Positions 4,184-59,892 of a stretch of 64,000 bases of DNA are shown piece after piece. The translations under genes were made by a program, and so were the position numbers. Each line of letters begins with the position of its first letter. Position 1 is the stretch's first letter. Source of the DNA: a virus (lineage: Duplodnaviria > Heunggongvirae > Uroviricota > Caudoviricetes); IMG/VR virus record IMGVR_UViG_2875697941_000001. The stretch is one strand, 5' to 3'. A model generated the notes under the pieces. The model saw only the letters and a list, made by a program, of their open reading frames with translations, was not told where the DNA came from and ran no database searches.

Positions 4184-5029
4184 ATGCTGGCTAAAGTCAC
4201 TTTCCTGAGCTGTATAACGATGAGCGATTTTACTTTTTCTGGCTATGAATTGGCCTGCTTTGTAACACACTCCGGCCTATCCCGTAGCGCCGGGCATATC
4301 CTGTCGCAATGTGCAAATCTCGCGGCAACAACCAGTGAATACTTCATTCACAAGCCTCACCGCCTGATCGCGGCAGAAACTGGTTATAGCCAATCAACCG
4401 TCGTTCGTGCATTCCGTGAAGCTGTAAACAAAGGAATTCTGTCTGTAGAGATTGTTATCGGCGATCACCGTGAACGTCGCGCTAACCTGTACCGGTTTAC
4501 ACCATCCTTTTTGGCCTTCGCACAACAAGCCAAAAATGCGCTGATAGAAAGCAAATTAAAGATCTCTTCAGCGGCAACCAAGGTTAAAGCTGTTCTCGCT
4601 AAGACATTGGCTTTATTTAATTTTTTATCCACACCCCCATGTCAAAATGATACCCCCTCCCCCTGTCAGGATGACGTGGCAATAAAGAATAAGAAGTCAC
4701 AAGTTAAAAAAACAAAAAGATCAGTTTCCGGCGGTGCCGGAACGACCAGCCTCAAAAAATTGACTTCATGGATCGCTAAGGCAAAAGCAAAGGCTGACAA
4801 TCTGCGGTTATCCAAAAAACGCACTCAAAAACATGAGTTCAAGCAGAAAGTAGAGGCGGCTGCGCGGAAATATGCTTACCTGAAGAACAAGCGTTCGCCT
4901 GATATTGGCGGGATATCAAACTTCGATAACCTACCGCATTGCATGACGGTAAACGAAGCTCTTAATGCGGTTTTAGCCAAAAATAAAGATAACGAACAAT
5001 GGGGTATACCGGCAGGATTCAGAGGGTAA
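4184..5029 (+). CDS. repL: RepL-like lytic replication protein (HTH-containing)
   Basis: 281-aa ORF directly downstream of kilA as in P1 kilA-repL operon; length matches my recollection of P1 RepL; identity not verified. Confidence 0.45.
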   Translation: MLAKVTFLSCITMSDFTFSGYELACFVTHSGLSRSAGHILSQCANLAATTSEYFIHKPHRLIAAETGYSQSTVVRAFREAVNKGILSVEIVIGDHRERRANLYRFTPSFLAFAQQAKNALIESKLKISSAATKVKAVLAKTLALFNFLSTPPCQNDTPSPCQDDVAIKNKKSQVKKTKRSVSGGAGTTSLKKLTSWIAKAKAKADNLRLSKKRTQKHEFKQKVEAAARKYAYLKNKRSPDIGGISNFDNLPHCMTVNEALNAVLAKNKDNEQWGIPAGFRG

Positions 5030-5042
5030 TGAATTGCTCTAA

Positions 5043-5059
5043 TTATAACCATGCATACT
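5043..5059 (+). promoter_or_regulatory. degenerate C1 operator-like 17-mer (ATTGCTCTAATTATAAC)
   Basis: 13/17 match to operator consensus; precedes the AT-rich DUF3800-like cassette. Confidence 0.3.
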
Positions 5060-5197
5060 TTCAACACCTCTAGTTTGCCATGAGGCAAACTCATAGGTGT
5101 CCTGGTAAGAGGACACTGTTGCCAAAACTGGACGCCCCATTATTGCAATTAATAAACAACTAACGGACAATTCTACCTAACAATAAGTGGAGTTAAC

Positions 5198-5902
5198 ATG
5201 TTGAACCGAAGAACATTTAATGTATTCTGCGATGAATCCTGTCACCTACTAAATGATCATAATAAAGTCATGGTATTGGGTGCGCTTTGGTGTCCCGGCA
5301 CTATCACAAAAAAAATTGCTAGAGACATCAAGGAATTAAAATTAAAACACAATCTAAAACCTGATTTCGAAATCAAGTGGACTAAAGTATCTGCGTCCAA
5401 AGTTGAATTTTACTTAGATGTCGTAGATTACTTCTTCAGCAACCCTGCATTGCGCTTTAGAGGTGTTGTTGTTCCTGATAAAGAGCAACTGGACCATGCT
5501 CGATTCCATCAAGATCATAATACTTTCTATTATAAGATGTTTTTTTATGTCTTAAAAAACATAATAGAAAGTAACAACACATACAATATCTACCTAGATA
5601 TAAAAGATACTTTAGGTATTGAAAAAATTGAGAAATTAAGAGGGGTTCTTCACAATGATCGCTATGATTACAATCATGAGTCGATAAACAGAATTCAACA
5701 TATACGATCTCATGAAGTGCAGCAATTGCAGCTAACGGATCTTTTCATTGGCGCGTTAGGCTACGTTCATCGAGGAATGAATAGCAACGCGGGAAAAATC
5801 CAAGTCATAAACAGAATAAAATCACATACAAACAGGGAGTTACTAAAAAGTACTCTTCCAACAGAAAGTAAATTTAATATTTTCGTGTGGGAGGCTCGCT
5901 GA
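5198..5902 (+). CDS. DUF3800-like protein (N-terminal FCDESCH motif)
   Basis: 234-aa ORF; DES motif near N-terminus typical of DUF3800; strongly AT-rich relative to flanks; could correspond to P1 rlfA (unverified). Confidence 0.55.
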   Translation: MLNRRTFNVFCDESCHLLNDHNKVMVLGALWCPGTITKKIARDIKELKLKHNLKPDFEIKWTKVSASKVEFYLDVVDYFFSNPALRFRGVVVPDKEQLDHARFHQDHNTFYYKMFFYVLKNIIESNNTYNIYLDIKDTLGIEKIEKLRGVLHNDRYDYNHESINRIQHIRSHEVQQLQLTDLFIGALGYVHRGMNSNAGKIQVINRIKSHTNRELLKSTLPTESKFNIFVWEAR

Positions 5903-55634: not shown

Positions 55635-55745
55635 ATGCCCTCCATAGTAACCATGAAGAAAAAAATACAATATGTACTTTTTTAATGCAAGCAAAAATAC
55701 ACATTGTGCATGGATGGTTGCAATACAGAGCGTAATAATAAGGAC
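55635..55745. promoter_or_regulatory. OR region: divergent PR/PRM promoters and operators between cro and cI
   Basis: 111-bp intergenic region between divergent starts; repeated ATACA(A/C)ATGT-like half-sites. Confidence 0.5.
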
Positions 55746-56405
55746 ATGAAAATGAAATGGTATGAACTGGCTAGATCCAGAATGAAAGAGCTCGGCATAA
55801 CTCAAGAGAAGTTAGCCGAAGAGCTAGGTATGACGCAGGGTGGAATTGGACACTGGTTGCGCGGATCTCGTCATCCATCTCTTAGTGATATTGGTGTGGT
55901 GTTTAAATACCTTGGTATTGATAACATATCATTCAACCACGACGGGACATTTTCACCTGTTGGCGAATACTCATCGGCCCCAGTTAAAAAACAATATGAG
56001 TACCCTGTTTTTTCTCATGTTCAGGCTGGGATGTTCTCTCCAGAACTCAGAACCTTTACCAAAGGCGATGCGGAGAGATTGGTAAGCACAACCAAAAAAG
56101 CCAGTGACTCTGCATTCTGGCTTGAGGTTGAAGGTAACTCGATGACCGCCCCAACAGGTTCCAAACCTAGTTTTCCTGACGGGATGTTAATTCTGGTTGA
56201 CCCTGAGCAGGCTGTTGAGCCAGGTGATTTCTGCATAGCCAGACTTGGTGGTGATGAGTTTACCTTCAAGAAACTGATCAGGGATAGCGGTCAGGTGTTT
56301 CTACAGCCACTAAACCCGCAATATCCAATGATCCCATGCAATGAGAGTTGTTCCGTTGTGGGGAAAGTTATCGCCAGCCAGTGGCCAGAAGAGACGTTTG
56401 GGTAA
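55746..56405 (+). CDS. cI: CI repressor (HTH N-terminal domain, LexA/S24-like autocleavage C-terminal domain)
   Basis: 219 aa from [11 protein letters not shown]; C-terminal domain matches lambda CI; N-terminal DNA-binding domain differs from lambda. Confidence 0.85.
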
Positions 56406-56577: not shown

Positions 56578-56874
56578 ATGAAAACCTTACGTTGCATGGC
56601 CTACCAGCAGAACGGCGTTTACGTAGCTGCATGTTTAGACCTGTCATTGGCAGCGCAAGCAGATACTATGAAAGAAGCTGTAAACAAACTGGATGAGCAG
56701 ATTAAAGATTTTTTCACTGAAGCGCTATCAGAGCCGGAATATGCAAAACAACTACTAAGTCGGAAAGCACCTTTATCTATGTGGCTTAAGTATTGGGTAA
56801 TTGCATTTCAGGTTTTTGTCAGAAAACGAGGTGAAGCAAAACTCTTTGCTGAGCCTTGTGATGCTCATGCTTAG
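56578..56874 (+). CDS. HicB-like (UPF0150/DUF1902-type) antitoxin candidate
   Basis: 98-aa ORF; VYVAACLDLSLAAQADTMKEAVNKLDEQI resembles the HicB-family core; at the lambda rexA position. Confidence 0.5.
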   Translation: MKTLRCMAYQQNGVYVAACLDLSLAAQADTMKEAVNKLDEQIKDFFTEALSEPEYAKQLLSRKAPLSMWLKYWVIAFQVFVRKRGEAKLFAEPCDAHA

Positions 56875-56885
56875 GGTTACATTAC

Positions 56886-57170
56886 ATGTTCTTGAAAAAG
56901 CTTACTCCTTTGAAATACGACGAGGTAATCAGGGGACTTAAGAAAATGGGGTTTGAAATGAAACCTAAAACAGGAACCTCTCACGAACAGTGGGTTCTCA
57001 AGAACAGTAAAGGAAAATGGGTGGTTACAGTTGATAAGCATCACGCCCCATTCTCCAGAGATTTAATAAAATCCATGGCTAAGCAAGCTGGACTGAAAGC
57101 TCGTCACTTTCATGCGTTATGCAGAGGTGACGCAACGCTTGAGGATATAGGATTCCAAATCATTAGCTAA
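56886..57170 (+). CDS. HicA/YcfA-like toxin candidate
   Basis: 94-aa ORF; GTSHEQWVLKNSKGKWVVTVDKHH...IKSMAKQAGL matches the HicA-type motif; 11 nt after the preceding gene. Confidence 0.5.
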   Translation: MFLKKLTPLKYDEVIRGLKKMGFEMKPKTGTSHEQWVLKNSKGKWVVTVDKHHAPFSRDLIKSMAKQAGLKARHFHALCRGDATLEDIGFQIIS

Positions 57171-57197
57171 AACCCGGCCTCAGCGCCGGGTTTTCTT
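57171..57197 (+). terminator. rho-independent terminator after the toxin-like gene
   Basis: AACCCGGC-CTCAG-CGCCGGGTT followed by TTCTTT. Confidence 0.55.
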
Positions 57198-57383: not shown

Positions 57384-57412
57384 TTGACCAAATAAAGTAC
57401 ATATCGTACTAT
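57384..57412 (+). promoter_or_regulatory. PL-like promoter (TTGACC-17 bp-TACTAT) with overlapping near-palindrome AGTACATATCGTACT (OL candidate)
   Basis: sigma-70 hexamers with 17-bp spacer read directly, about 190 bp upstream of N. Confidence 0.5.
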
Positions 57413-57602
57413 TTAACCGTCAGCAGGACGCTGGAAGCCAAACGGAACAGACTGGCAGGCTCTTTAAACAACGTCGAACTCTCGACTACGTGGCTGAAAA
57501 GCCAGATCACCCAACCACATGAGCTGTGGGATGCAATGCCGAAGCAACCGTCTCAGGAGGAGCTTCGAGATTGCATCGCCAAAGTTTATTCGGGAGGAAT
57601 CT

Positions 57603-57875
57603 ATGTCCAGAAAAACAGAATTTAAAGGCACCGCAGCTTCTCGCCGTAGAGCTCGTCGCGCAAATCTGCAAAGTCAGAAGGCGATCAGCTCCGACAAGCT
57701 ACACAGGCCAACCCCTTCACGAGTGGTCTTGCAATGCAAGCGCAAACCAGCAATGAGAGCAGAAGTAATAACACTGACAACGCTGACCAGAAAATATGAA
57801 GGCTCAACTTGTCTTCCAAACGTAGCTCTTTACGCGGCAGGCTACCGGAAATCCAAACAACTGACAGCAAGATGA
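57603..57875 (+). CDS. N: N-type antiterminator with arginine-rich motif (P22 gp24-like C-terminus)
   Basis: 90 aa from MSRKTEFKGTAASRRRARRANLQSQK; C-terminus LPNVALYAAGYRKSKQLTAR. Confidence 0.7.
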   Translation: MSRKTEFKGTAASRRRARRANLQSQKAISSDKLHRPTPSRVVLQCKRKPAMRAEVITLTTLTRKYEGSTCLPNVALYAAGYRKSKQLTAR

Positions 57876-57933
57876 CTTGTGTTGGTCGCCAGAAAATGAA
57901 ATTAGGCAGCAAACCACTTATTTGAGGTGAGAT

Positions 57934-58020
57934 ATGGAAGAAGAATTTGAAGAGTTCGAAGATCATCCTCAGGATGTGATGGAACAATACCAGGACTATC
58001 CGTATGACTACGACTATTGA
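57934..58020 (+). CDS. 28-aa highly acidic micro-ORF
   Basis: MEEEFEEFEDHPQDVMEQYQDYPYDYDY with GAGGTGA RBS; below ORF-track size cutoff; position and length suggest lambda orf28, not verified. Confidence 0.35.
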   Translation: MEEEFEEFEDHPQDVMEQYQDYPYDYDY

Positions 58021-58159
58021 TAAGAATCAATGGTGTAGACAATACGAACGACGACAATGATTGCCAGAGAACTTGGTAAACAGAACTACAAGGCTGCCTG
58101 ATGGTGGCCTTTATTTTTGTCCGTAAATAATTTCATGCTTATTACAATCAAGGTGATAT

Positions 58160-58609
58160 ATGGAAGAACAAGCAAACAAGATTCTCGTAGAACTACTGCA
58201 AAAAGCCAGTAATGGAATAGACGCGGCTGTTTCATTTAGCCAGGCACAGATTCCTGATGTTGTTCATCAGTTGCTGCTATGGAATATGGTTGACAGTCTG
58301 ATTAAAACATTAATGGCCATTCTAACAATCCCACTGGTTTTCTGGTTTATGAAGAAGCAGTGCCAAAGAGTTGAGACAGGTAAAATCGGTGATGAAGGAT
58401 ATTCATGGGAGAAAGGAAATCCCAAATACAGGCCGACAATGGTTTGGGATAGCAAAGGTGATATTAATCTTCTTATCATGCCATTGGTTGGAGTTTTGAC
58501 TCTGTGGGGGATTTTTATTATTGGTGTAGTAACCAATATGACTTGGTTAAAAATTTGGCTGGCCCCAAAGCTTTACCTTATCGAATATGCAGCATCATTG
58601 GTTAAGTAA
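58160..58609 (+). CDS. small inner-membrane protein (two predicted TM helices), superinfection-exclusion candidate
   Basis: 149-aa ORF with hydrophobic segments LMAILTIPLVFWFM and LLIMPLVGVLTLWGIFIIGVV; AAGGTGA RBS; lies where lambda carries ral/sieB. Confidence 0.5.
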   Translation: MEEQANKILVELLQKASNGIDAAVSFSQAQIPDVVHQLLLWNMVDSLIKTLMAILTIPLVFWFMKKQCQRVETGKIGDEGYSWEKGNPKYRPTMVWDSKGDINLLIMPLVGVLTLWGIFIIGVVTNMTWLKIWLAPKLYLIEYAASLVK

Positions 58610-58611
58610 TT

Positions 58612-58640
58612 TCAGGCCGCATAGTCGGCCTTTATTTTTG
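58612..58640 (+). terminator. hairpin terminator
   Basis: AGGCCG-CATAGT-CGGCCT followed by TTATTTTTGG. Confidence 0.45.
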
Positions 58641-58804
58641 GCATAAACAACAGAATAAACACTGCACTGTGTATTCATTCCAACGAGTGAATACACGGAG
58701 CAATGTCGCTCGTAACTAAACAGGAGCCGACTTGTTCTGATTATTGGAAATCTTCTTTGCCCTCCAGTGTGAAGGCGATTTTTTATCTATGAGGATATGA
58801 ATAG

Positions 58805-59173
58805 ATGTCAAACATCAAAAAATACATCATTGATTACGACTGGAAAGCATCAATAGAAATTGAAATCGACCATGACGTAATGACAGAGGAAAAACTTCAC
58901 CAGATTAATAATTTCTGGTCAGACTCTGAATACCGACTCAATAAACACGGCTCTTTATTAAATGCTGTATTAATCATGCTGGCGCAACATGCTCTGCTTA
59001 TAGCAATTTCGAAAGACTTAAATGCATATGGTGTTGTTTGTGAGTTCGACTGGGATGATGGAAATGGTCAGGAAGGATGGCCTCCAATGGATGGTAGTGA
59101 AGGAATAAGAATTACCGATATCGATACATCAGGAATATTTGATTCAGATGATATGACTATCAAGGCCGCCTGA
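58805..59173 (+). CDS. hypothetical protein, lambda Ea10 position
   Basis: 122-aa ORF between the membrane protein and cIII. Confidence 0.5.
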   Translation: MSNIKKYIIDYDWKASIEIEIDHDVMTEEKLHQINNFWSDSEYRLNKHGSLLNAVLIMLAQHALLIAISKDLNAYGVVCEFDWDDGNGQEGWPPMDGSEGIRITDIDTSGIFDSDDMTIKAA

Positions 59174-59245
59174 GTGCGGTTTTACCGCATACCAATAACG
59201 CTTCACTCGAGGCGTTTTTCGTTATGTATAAATAAGGAGCACACC

Positions 59246-59410
59246 ATGCAATATGCCATTGCAGGGTGGCCTGTTGCTGGCTGCCCTTCCGAATCTTTAC
59301 TTGAACGAATCACCCGTAAATTACGTGACGGATGGAAACGCCTTATCGACATGCTTAATCAGCCAGGAGTCCCAAAGAATGGATCAAACACTTATGGCTA
59401 TCCAGACTAA
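59246..59410 (+). CDS. cIII: CIII (FtsH inhibitor)
   Basis: [54 protein letters not shown] matches lambda CIII. Confidence 0.95.
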   Translation: MQYAIAGWPVAGCPSESLLERITRKLRDGWKRLIDMLNQPGVPKNGSNTYGYPD

Positions 59411-59522
59411 ATTCACTATCGCCACTTTTATTGGCGATGAAAAGATGTTTCGTGAAGCCGTCGACGCTTATAAAAAATGGATATTAATACTGAAACTGAG
59501 ATCAAGCAAAAGCATTCACTAA
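59379..59522 (+). CDS. kil: Kil (FtsZ inhibitor)
   Basis: 47 aa [47 protein letters not shown]; overlaps cIII 3' end as in lambda. Confidence 0.85.
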
Positions 59523-59595
59523 CCCCTTTCCTGTTTTCCTAATCAGCCCGGCATTTCGCGGGCGATATTTTCACAGCTATTTCAGGAGTTCAGCC

Positions 59596-59892
59596 ATGAA
59601 CGCTTATTACATTCAGGATCGTCTTGAGGCTCAGAGCTGGGCGCGTCACTACCAGCAGATCGCCCGTGAAGAGAAAGAGGCAGAACTGGCAGACGACATG
59701 GAAAAAGGCCTGCCCCAGCACCTGTTTGAATCACTCTGCATCGATCATTTACAACGCCACGGGGCCAGTAAAAAAGCCATTACCCGTGCGTTTGATGACG
59801 ATGTTGAGTTTCAGGAGCGCATGGCAGAACACATCCGGTACATGGTTGAAACCATTGCTCACCACCAGGTTGATATTGATTCAGAGGTATAA
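59596..59892 (+). CDS. gam: Gam (RecBCD inhibitor)
   Basis: 98 aa [38 protein letters not shown] matches lambda GamS. Confidence 0.95.

Follow-up and report, generated by a model that had tools for sequence, protein, structure and literature searches.

A mobile PHROG 3054 membrane-protein gene in a mosaic N-to-cIII interval of a lambda-like Escherichia coli prophage

Results

The interval between N and cIII

We analysed a stretch of 64,000 nucleotides (nt) from a tailed phage of the Caudoviricetes (IMG/VR record IMGVR_UViG_2875697941_000001), referred to below as the window, and focused on the block of small genes between the antiterminator gene N and cIII, in particular on a gene encoding a membrane protein of 149 amino acids (aa). 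The region is the early-left (pL) operon of a lambda-like Escherichia coli prophage; every cassette lies on the + strand and follows pL, nutL and N. The cassette order is orf28, a frameshifted ral and a hairpin, followed by the PHROG-3054 gene that encodes the 149-aa protein, then a boundary sequence, the small RNA (sRNA) PreS with the terminator tL2a, ea10 and finally cIII. A previous sequence-only reading had reported three open reading frames (ORFs) in this block, had equated the block with the interval in which lambda carries ral and sieB, and had regarded it as accessory. None of the three ORFs is a chance ORF, as each matches a PHROG profile end to end (E=5e-18, 4e-64 and 2.5e-70), the lambda annotation places ral and sieB in this interval, and the accessory nature of the block is seen in the absence of the 149-aa gene from both lambda and P22. 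The ral remnant, the PreS sRNA and the lack of sieB had not been part of that reading. The block contains the following features.

57934-58020, + strand: orf28, 28 aa, with the Shine-Dalgarno (SD) sequence GAGGTGA; matches phrog_16060 end to end (E=4.6e-18)
58004-58101, + strand: ral pseudogene, from the alignment with lambda, Sf6 and 2B8 and from translations
58090-58119, + strand: hairpin with U-tract across the ral stop codon, the upstream junction of the 149-aa cassette (free energy, dG, -13.9; z -3.4)
58160-58609, + strand: ORF of the 149-aa inner-membrane protein with two predicted transmembrane (TM) helices (PHROG 3054, Sf6 gene 34 family); SD/start from 58150, SD AAGGTGA
58614-58640, + strand: terminator-like hairpin with T-run that ends the 149-aa cassette
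58641-58697, + strand: non-coding boundary sequence, from the alignment of lambda, Sf6, 2B8, HF4s and Gally; annotated bsq4 in Sf6
58698-58785, + strand: PreS (LPR1) homolog, 87 of 88 nt identical to lambda, 3' end at tL2a
58805-59173, + strand: ea10, 122 aa, DUF2528 (PF10800; Pfam 156.3 bits against a cutoff of 22); phrog_646 (E=2.5e-70)

Five complete E. coli genomes match positions 57500-59600 at 100% identity, so that neither the ral deletion nor the order of the cassettes is likely to be an assembly artefact, and coverage of 80% or more of the stretch was seen in 54 genomes. In strain CP55_Sichuan the prophage adjoins ompT, envY and nfrA, and its head, tail and lysis genes are of the lambda type.

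The 149-aa protein and its family

The 149-aa protein had been described as a two-helix membrane protein with its own ribosome-binding site and terminator, and our analysis agrees on each point (SD AAGGTGA; terminator at 58614-58640). Its two hydrophobic 19-residue windows span residues 46-64 (Kyte-Doolittle mean 2.0) and 106-124 (mean 2.45), which places TM1 at about nt 58295-58351 and TM2 at about nt 58475-58531. The match to phrog_3054 (E=4.2e-64) extends over residues 1-149 and over profile positions 1-137 of 137, and distant members of the family also map to phrog_3054. The family is large, with 516 close clusters, at least 1,414 clusters (90% identity) when the distant profile is used, and 2,496 representatives at 50% identity. 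Its members include Sf6 gene 34 (AAQ12224.1), a 'TM helix-containing protein' of phage HF4s and a hypothetical protein of phage Gally, and in a collection of 15 billion proteins the members are named only 'hypothetical protein' or 'Phage transmembrane protein'. Scans of Pfam and NCBIfam gave nothing for the 28-aa and 149-aa ORFs, PADLOC-DB had no match at E<=1 for any of the three ORFs, and a Pfam scan of ten distant homologs of the 149-aa protein gave sub-threshold noise only, with no holin or antiholin family. Similarly, a sequence search of the Protein Data Bank with the PHROG-3054 profile and with Ea10 gave no matches. Profile comparison by hhalign indicated no relationship of the family to lambda SieB, P22 SieB or P22 SieA (probabilities of 0.3%, 0.6% and 0.7%, respectively).

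The conservation of the family is concentrated at the two ends of the protein. About 45 N-terminal residues (codons 1-46) and about 23 C-terminal residues (codons 127-149, W-LKIWIAPKLYLIEYAASLVK) are near-invariant, and this holds from E. coli to Pseudomonas and Alcaligenaceae, while the core is variable and its loop ranges from 10 to 76 aa. The window protein has the N-tail, both TM helices and the C-tail motif W-x-x-I-x-x-APKLYL-x-EYA, and exactly two TM windows were found in 165 of the 170 motif-bearing members. The ratio of non-synonymous to synonymous substitution rates (dN/dS), calculated from 56 unique coding sequences, was 0.077 in the N-tail and 0.066 in the C-tail, as against 0.38 in the core. 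With a ratio below 1 in every part, the gene evolves under purifying selection, and most of the constraint falls on the tails.

The closest described relative is Sf6 gene 34, which occupies the same slot as the window gene (ral, gene 34, bsq4, tL2a). Sf6 gp34 has 140 aa as compared to 149 aa in the window (locus L001, 2764-3186), and its first ~40 and last ~25 codons are essentially identical to those of the window gene, whereas the TM1-loop-TM2 cores are unrelated. The core has been exchanged as a unit by recombination, and the gene is an intragenic mosaic.

A topology prediction had been suggested for this protein, and it returned the two TM windows with a charge bias in favour of an N-out/C-out orientation. 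In 157 of 165 members, a sample of partly redundant sequences, the loop side of the TM helices carries more flanking lysine and arginine residues than the tail side, and the N-tail is net acidic. With a basic loop and an acidic N-tail, the positive-inside rule predicts a cytoplasmic loop and periplasmic tails.

Expression and genomic contexts of the 149-aa gene

A promoter scan of the + strand at 57400-59700 found no promoter-like site other than pL, although a weak or non-canonical one may have escaped the scan. The distance from the upstream T-run to the SD of the 149-aa gene is only ~40 nt, and in phage HF4s the homolog begins 8 nt past the N stop codon. The position on the pL strand, the lack of a promoter-like site and the spacing in HF4s fit lytic expression better than expression from a repressed prophage.

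In 80 IMG/VR loci the gene was always downstream of N, which was present in several alleles, with or without orf28-ral, and it was usually followed by the PreS region and then by ea10 or a homolog of Sf6 gene 33. Other contexts were found outside this arrangement. In Proteus, Providencia, Buttiauxella and Dryocola prophages (loci L095, L109, L111 and L115, about 4500-5450) the homolog directly follows Rz/Rz1 and ends the holin-endolysin-spanin cassette, and in Pantoea it follows a lysozyme gene and a gene for an Rz-like coiled-coil protein. Two P22-like contigs (L127 and L129, 4001-4543) have the homolog in line between homologs of gene 4 and gene 10. In Pseudomonas lundensis and Rahnella the homolog is on the opposite strand, with portal and terminase as its neighbours, and no convincing promoter was detected for it there; in Candidimonas it adjoins an integrase gene. 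The 149-aa gene thus behaves like a mobile accessory gene that is mostly embedded in lytic operons.

Juhala et al. 2000 used the term moron for an extra gene between the neighbours of its relatives, with its own promoter and terminator. Lambda and 2B8 pass directly from the ral hairpin to the boundary sequence, and the window and Sf6 have an extra cassette at this site. The terminator is present, but the consensus scan yielded no promoter. The junctions of the cassettes share repeated sequences. The 19-nt SD/start motif of the 149-aa gene, AAGGTGATATATGGAAGAA (58150-58168), matches that of lambda orf28 exactly and that of orf28 in the window (57924-57942) at all but 2 nt, and a hairpin followed by GGCCTTTATTTTTG stands after both ral (58105-58119) and the 149-aa gene (58627-58640). 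In other phages the same cassettes are reshuffled around these repeated junction sequences, and the repeats look like joints for cassette exchange.

The ral remnant and orf28

The ral start at 58004 is intact. However, an internal deletion of 103 bp shifts the frame, leaving an N-terminal stub of 18 codons (58004-58060) and an out-of-frame C-terminal piece (58039-58101), so that the intact Ral ORF of 64-66 aa is absent here, and the Prokaryotic Genome Annotation Pipeline (PGAP) annotated only a 19-aa 'Ral family' stub. In this prophage ral is dead. The identical deletion allele was found in 11 other loci (of ~30 ral-bearing loci examined), where it was combined with different N alleles, which identifies it as a circulating variant and not an assembly error. 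Lambda, Sf6 and 2B8 all retain the hairpin that spans the ral stop codon. No sieB gene is present between N and cIII of the window.

The 28-aa ORF is the ortholog of lambda orf28, with 27 of 28 aa identical and E10D as the sole change. Its peptide, MEEEFEEFEDHPQDVMEQYQDYPYDYDY, had been noted as extraordinarily acidic and rich in tyrosine, and its 12 acidic residues, its 5 Tyr and the lack of any basic residue bear this out. In an alignment of seven phages the homology starts exactly at the orf28 SD, and the changes within the gene comprise ~6 synonymous and 4 non-synonymous ones, two of the latter being Glu/Asp exchanges; this substitution pattern weakly supports translation of orf28. The stop codon of orf28 and the ATG of ral overlap by 17 nt, which is suggestive of translational coupling. 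The probable role of orf28 is that of a translated leader ORF with coupling to ral.

PreS and the boundary sequence

LPR1/PreS has been described as an 88-nt Hfq-dependent sRNA of lambda, located between ral and ea10 with its 3' end formed by the terminator tL2a, that binds Hfq and builds up during the lytic cycle, where it activates the translation of dnaN and promotes lytic replication (bioRxiv 10.1101/2024.10.31.621285). From Table S5 of the same work we took primers P1103/P1104 and those used for seed deletion, and rebuilt the lambda PreS sequence from them. An initial candidate for the PreS 3' end, the hairpin at the ral stop codon, was dropped, as the primer-based sequence falls between ral and ea10, with its end at tL2a just 5' of ea10.

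The PreS seed, TGTTCTGATTATTGGAAA, is intact in the window (58730-58747) and is identical in 70 of 72 copies, the window copy included. The sole difference from lambda is a G to A change at 58773, which leaves the U-tail in place and creates a C-A mismatch in the terminator stem (GAGGGC to GAAGGC); according to fold prediction it lowers the stability of the tL2a hairpin from a dG of -12.9 to -6.3 kcal/mol. The 3' stem arm GAGGGC was found in ~72 of ~79 PreS copies, while the loop varies freely, which indicates that the terminator stem is under selection. Among the ~79 copies the GAAGGC variant occurred only in two loci identical to the window. The PreS of the window is a rare allele with a probably weakened terminator, and it should still raise host DnaN, though made from that terminator.

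About 150 nt around PreS are almost invariant in lambda, Sf6, 2B8, HF4s and Gally, regardless of the gene downstream; the Sf6 record names it 'boundary sequence bsq4' plus tL2a. Additionally, the boundary sequence contains an invariant hairpin with a 9-bp stem at 58669-58696 (GTGTATTCA-N10-TGAATACAC), which ends 1 nt before the +1 of PreS and is conserved in the same five phages; it may serve in the processing of PreS or in its stability. In some IMG/VR loci further cassettes are flanked by the first 30 nt of the boundary sequence.

Ea10

The 122-aa ORF is lambda Ea10, with 119 of 122 aa identical, and its AlphaFold2 model has a predicted local distance difference test score of 93.6. No signal was obtained when Ea10 was compared with HflC and HflK by hhalign. 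In lambda, orf28 and ea10 are dispensable and without assigned function (PMC10695390). On the function of Sf6 gene 34, orf28 and Ea10 the literature gave only strain constructions, the non-essentiality in lambda and one mention in a yeast two-hybrid study. Comparison of the three proteins with lambda had been proposed as a way to weaken the idea of exclusion, should they be identical to lambda proteins of assigned function; two of the three (orf28 and Ea10) are indeed near-identical to lambda, but these are without assigned function, and the 149-aa protein is absent from lambda.

The surrounding early-left operon

The block is flanked by the following features.

55704-56405, + strand: cI-like repressor of the LexA family
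56578-57170, + strand: DUF1902 (HicB-like) gene and HicA-family toxin gene, in the position of lambda rexA/rexB between cI and pL
57171-57197: tImm-like hairpin after the DUF1902/HicA genes
57384-57412, + strand: pL-like sigma-70 promoter, TTGACC-17-TACTAT, from the promoter scan and from the layout between the cI/hicAB unit and nutL/N as in lambda
57459-57486, + strand: nutL-like site, with boxA GCTCTTTAA followed by the boxB hairpin GTCGA-ACTC-TCGAC, read from the sequence; the hairpin was also found in the promoter scan
57603-57875, + strand: antiterminator N, 90 aa (PF25694, 110.7 bits; phrog_271)
57872-57925, + strand: 17-codon relic of a second N C-terminus of the lambda/21 type, MTCVGRQKMKLGSKPLI*, from its translation and comparison with the lambda N C-terminus ITCSGRQKIKGKSIPLI
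59197-59224, + strand: terminator-like hairpin with T-run between ea10 and cIII
59233-59410, + strand: cIII thermoregulator RNA (59233-59291; Rfam RF01804, 88.5 bits) and cIII (59247-59410; 53 of 54 aa identical to lambda CIII), the right limit of the block

By its match to the layout of the lambda map, the pL-like promoter is taken to drive the whole block, and the nutL-like site is putatively assigned by analogy with nutL of lambda and P22. The N relic directly follows the N stop codon, which places the recombination joint from which this N allele arose within the gene; orf28 follows directly after the relic. On the 3' side of cIII are kil, gam, bet and exo. The DUF1902/HicA pair may be a prophage-expressed toxin-antitoxin or abortive-infection module.

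On the minus strand, a 100-aa ORF antisense to N and the start of orf28 (57685-57987) matched phrog_37739 (E=6e-51) and is most likely a mis-annotation propagated among phage genomes with the same N allele. The other minus-strand ORFs within the block had no family match.

Comparison with lambda

Lambda (NC_001416, 33536-34357) has orf28, ral, PreS/tL2a and ea10 in the same order and orientation, and the junction sequences are common to both phages. The window differs in that ral is destroyed, a 149-aa cassette of ~520-540 bp lies between ral and PreS, sieB is absent, and the PreS stem has the G to A change. The block is thus a mosaic of described lambda elements and one member of a large uncharacterised family of phage membrane proteins, with nothing outside known kinds.

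Discussion

The 149-aa gene lies in line in the early-left operon, encodes a membrane protein, is conserved chiefly in its two tails and moves between loci. We tentatively propose that the protein has a role in envelope conflict, in which it would block the entry of secondary phage genomes in a way similar to T4 Imm, P22 SieA or HK97 gp15 without belonging to those families, a proposal by analogy that we consider possible, and the one we lean towards, but short of probable. The protein would be made during lytic development, upon induction or infection, from pL with N antitermination, and would be inserted in the inner membrane by its two TM helices, with the tails in the periplasm and the basic loop in the cytoplasm. 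Function would reside in the conserved tails, through binding to a conserved partner, with a loosely constrained TM-loop-TM core between them, and the protein would then stop a second phage genome at the inner membrane of the infected or induced cell. P22 SieA is a small inner-membrane protein that blocks injection (PMC10883804). If the entry-block proposal is true, the 149-aa protein would share with SieA, T4 Imm and HK97 gp15 that all are small, non-essential and mobile accessory proteins of the inner membrane. No homology to SieA was found (0.7%), SieA being the member of this set that the homology comparison covered.

An entry block is plausible from sequence and context, but several observations weigh against it. 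Comparison by hhalign found no homology to either SieB or to SieA, and there was no PADLOC match. The predicted N-out topology would require translocation across the membrane of a 45-aa tail that has no signal peptide. Whereas sieA, sieB, rex and HK97 gp15 are expressed from the prophage, the 149-aa gene apparently is not and seems to depend on pL. A role in lysis would account equally well for the close linkage with Rz/Rz1 that is seen in several genera, and the dN/dS of the core is below 1, with no positive sign of an arms race.

The sequence-only reading had seen in the 149-aa protein a candidate exclusion or injection-blocking factor. In its classical form this would be a factor with its own weak promoter, transcribed in the lysogen as a functional stand-in for the missing sieB. 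The gene lies in the N-ral-ea10 interval where lambda and P22 carry sieB, sieB itself is absent here, and the architecture is moron-like, with a hairpin and T-run upstream and a terminator downstream; moreover, the opposite-strand homologs of Pseudomonas lundensis and Rahnella imply independent transcription. HK97 gp15 is an in-line moron that is expressed in the lysogen and excludes other phages, which counts in favour of this explanation. However, the in-line position behind pL without a promoter-like site weakens a role of this type, given the ~40 nt between the T-run and the SD, the homolog that abuts N in HF4s and the Rahnella and Pseudomonas loci without a detected promoter. The likeness to SieB is also limited. 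SieB of lambda and P22 (with Esc) comes from the same neighbourhood (N to ral) and is likewise an accessory membrane protein with two N-terminal hydrophobic segments, but sieB is on the strand opposite to pL with its own mapped promoter in the lambda and P22 annotations, while the 149-aa gene is on the pL strand, and SieB has a large cytoplasmic C-terminal domain, unlike the 149-aa protein. Ranade and Poteete (1993) reportedly found that SieB aborts the lytic growth of other phages and does not block their entry. As the gene co-occurs with a lambda-type sieB in one locus (L069), it is not a strict replacement, and together with the missing homology to SieB and SieA this leaves lysogen-type exclusion rather unlikely. 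It is also unlikely, though less so than lysogen-type exclusion, that the protein is a lysis-associated membrane factor, for instance a timer like an antiholin or a protein that modulates holin or spanin action, and was carried into the pL operon of lambdoid coliphages. This explanation draws on the location of the gene 0-8 nt after Rz (PF03245)/Rz1 (PF06085), downstream of holin (PF16931) and endolysin, in at least four genera, on the Pantoea homolog after lysozyme and the Rz-like gene, and on the small two-TM protein having its tails in the predicted periplasm, where spanins and holin ectodomains act. Most phages of E. coli, Salmonella and Shigella, however, have the gene in the early-left operon, far from the lysis genes, so that its product would appear well ahead of lysis; the gene is also found amid P22-like head-completion genes and beside an integrase gene, and no Pfam holin or antiholin family was matched. 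The slot after Rz is moreover a general hotspot for accessory genes, for example lambda bor, which counts against a specific link to lysis.

Early expression from an operon stretch shared with ral, gam, kil and cIII would also suit a counter-defence factor directed at membrane abortive-infection or exclusion systems of the host or of a resident prophage (RexAB, SieB-type), for which T4 rII against Rex and P22 Esc against SieB are parallels. The gene is accessory and highly mobile, and conserved tails fit the binding of a conserved target. This idea is built on context, with no homology found to Esc, rII or a known anti-defence protein, and the late-operon contexts are less natural for an early function; we regard it as improbable, more so than the lysis and lysogen-type explanations. 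Least probable of all, and very much so, is that the tails bind FtsH/HflKC or another housekeeping machine of the inner membrane and, with cIII and perhaps Ea10, tune CII stability and the decision between lysis and lysogeny. The gene is near cIII, whose product inhibits FtsH, and the predicted periplasmic tails would face the HflKC cage, but Ea10 gave no sequence signal against HflC or HflK, and the 149-aa gene often has no ea10 or cIII nearby.

Taken more broadly than the entry block proposed above, PHROG 3054 might be an unrecognised, very widespread class of envelope-conflict proteins that extends from Enterobacterales to Pseudomonas and Alcaligenaceae, in which periplasmic tails block a conserved step of DNA entry or control lysis and the core is freely exchangeable. 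We consider this doubtful, though less so than the lysis explanation, and still less probable than this broad class is the notion of Ea10 as a minimal SPFH-like protein that, beside cIII, would act on HflKC/FtsH.

The 149-aa protein is a reasonable but unremarkable, well-defined candidate for a role in exclusion or lysis, and if it proved to have no phenotype, the locus would be an ordinary mosaic of known lambda accessory genes. The stretch from N to cIII of lambdoid phages is a hotspot for small genes of host takeover and conflict, and the window copy illustrates how cassettes are shuffled there at short conserved junctions, with one phage lineage having lost Ral while keeping orf28 and the PreS sRNA that boosts host replication. 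PHROG 3054 is carried by Stx-converting, lambda-like and P22-like phages of pathogens, and its combination of invariant tails with a swappable core is unusual.

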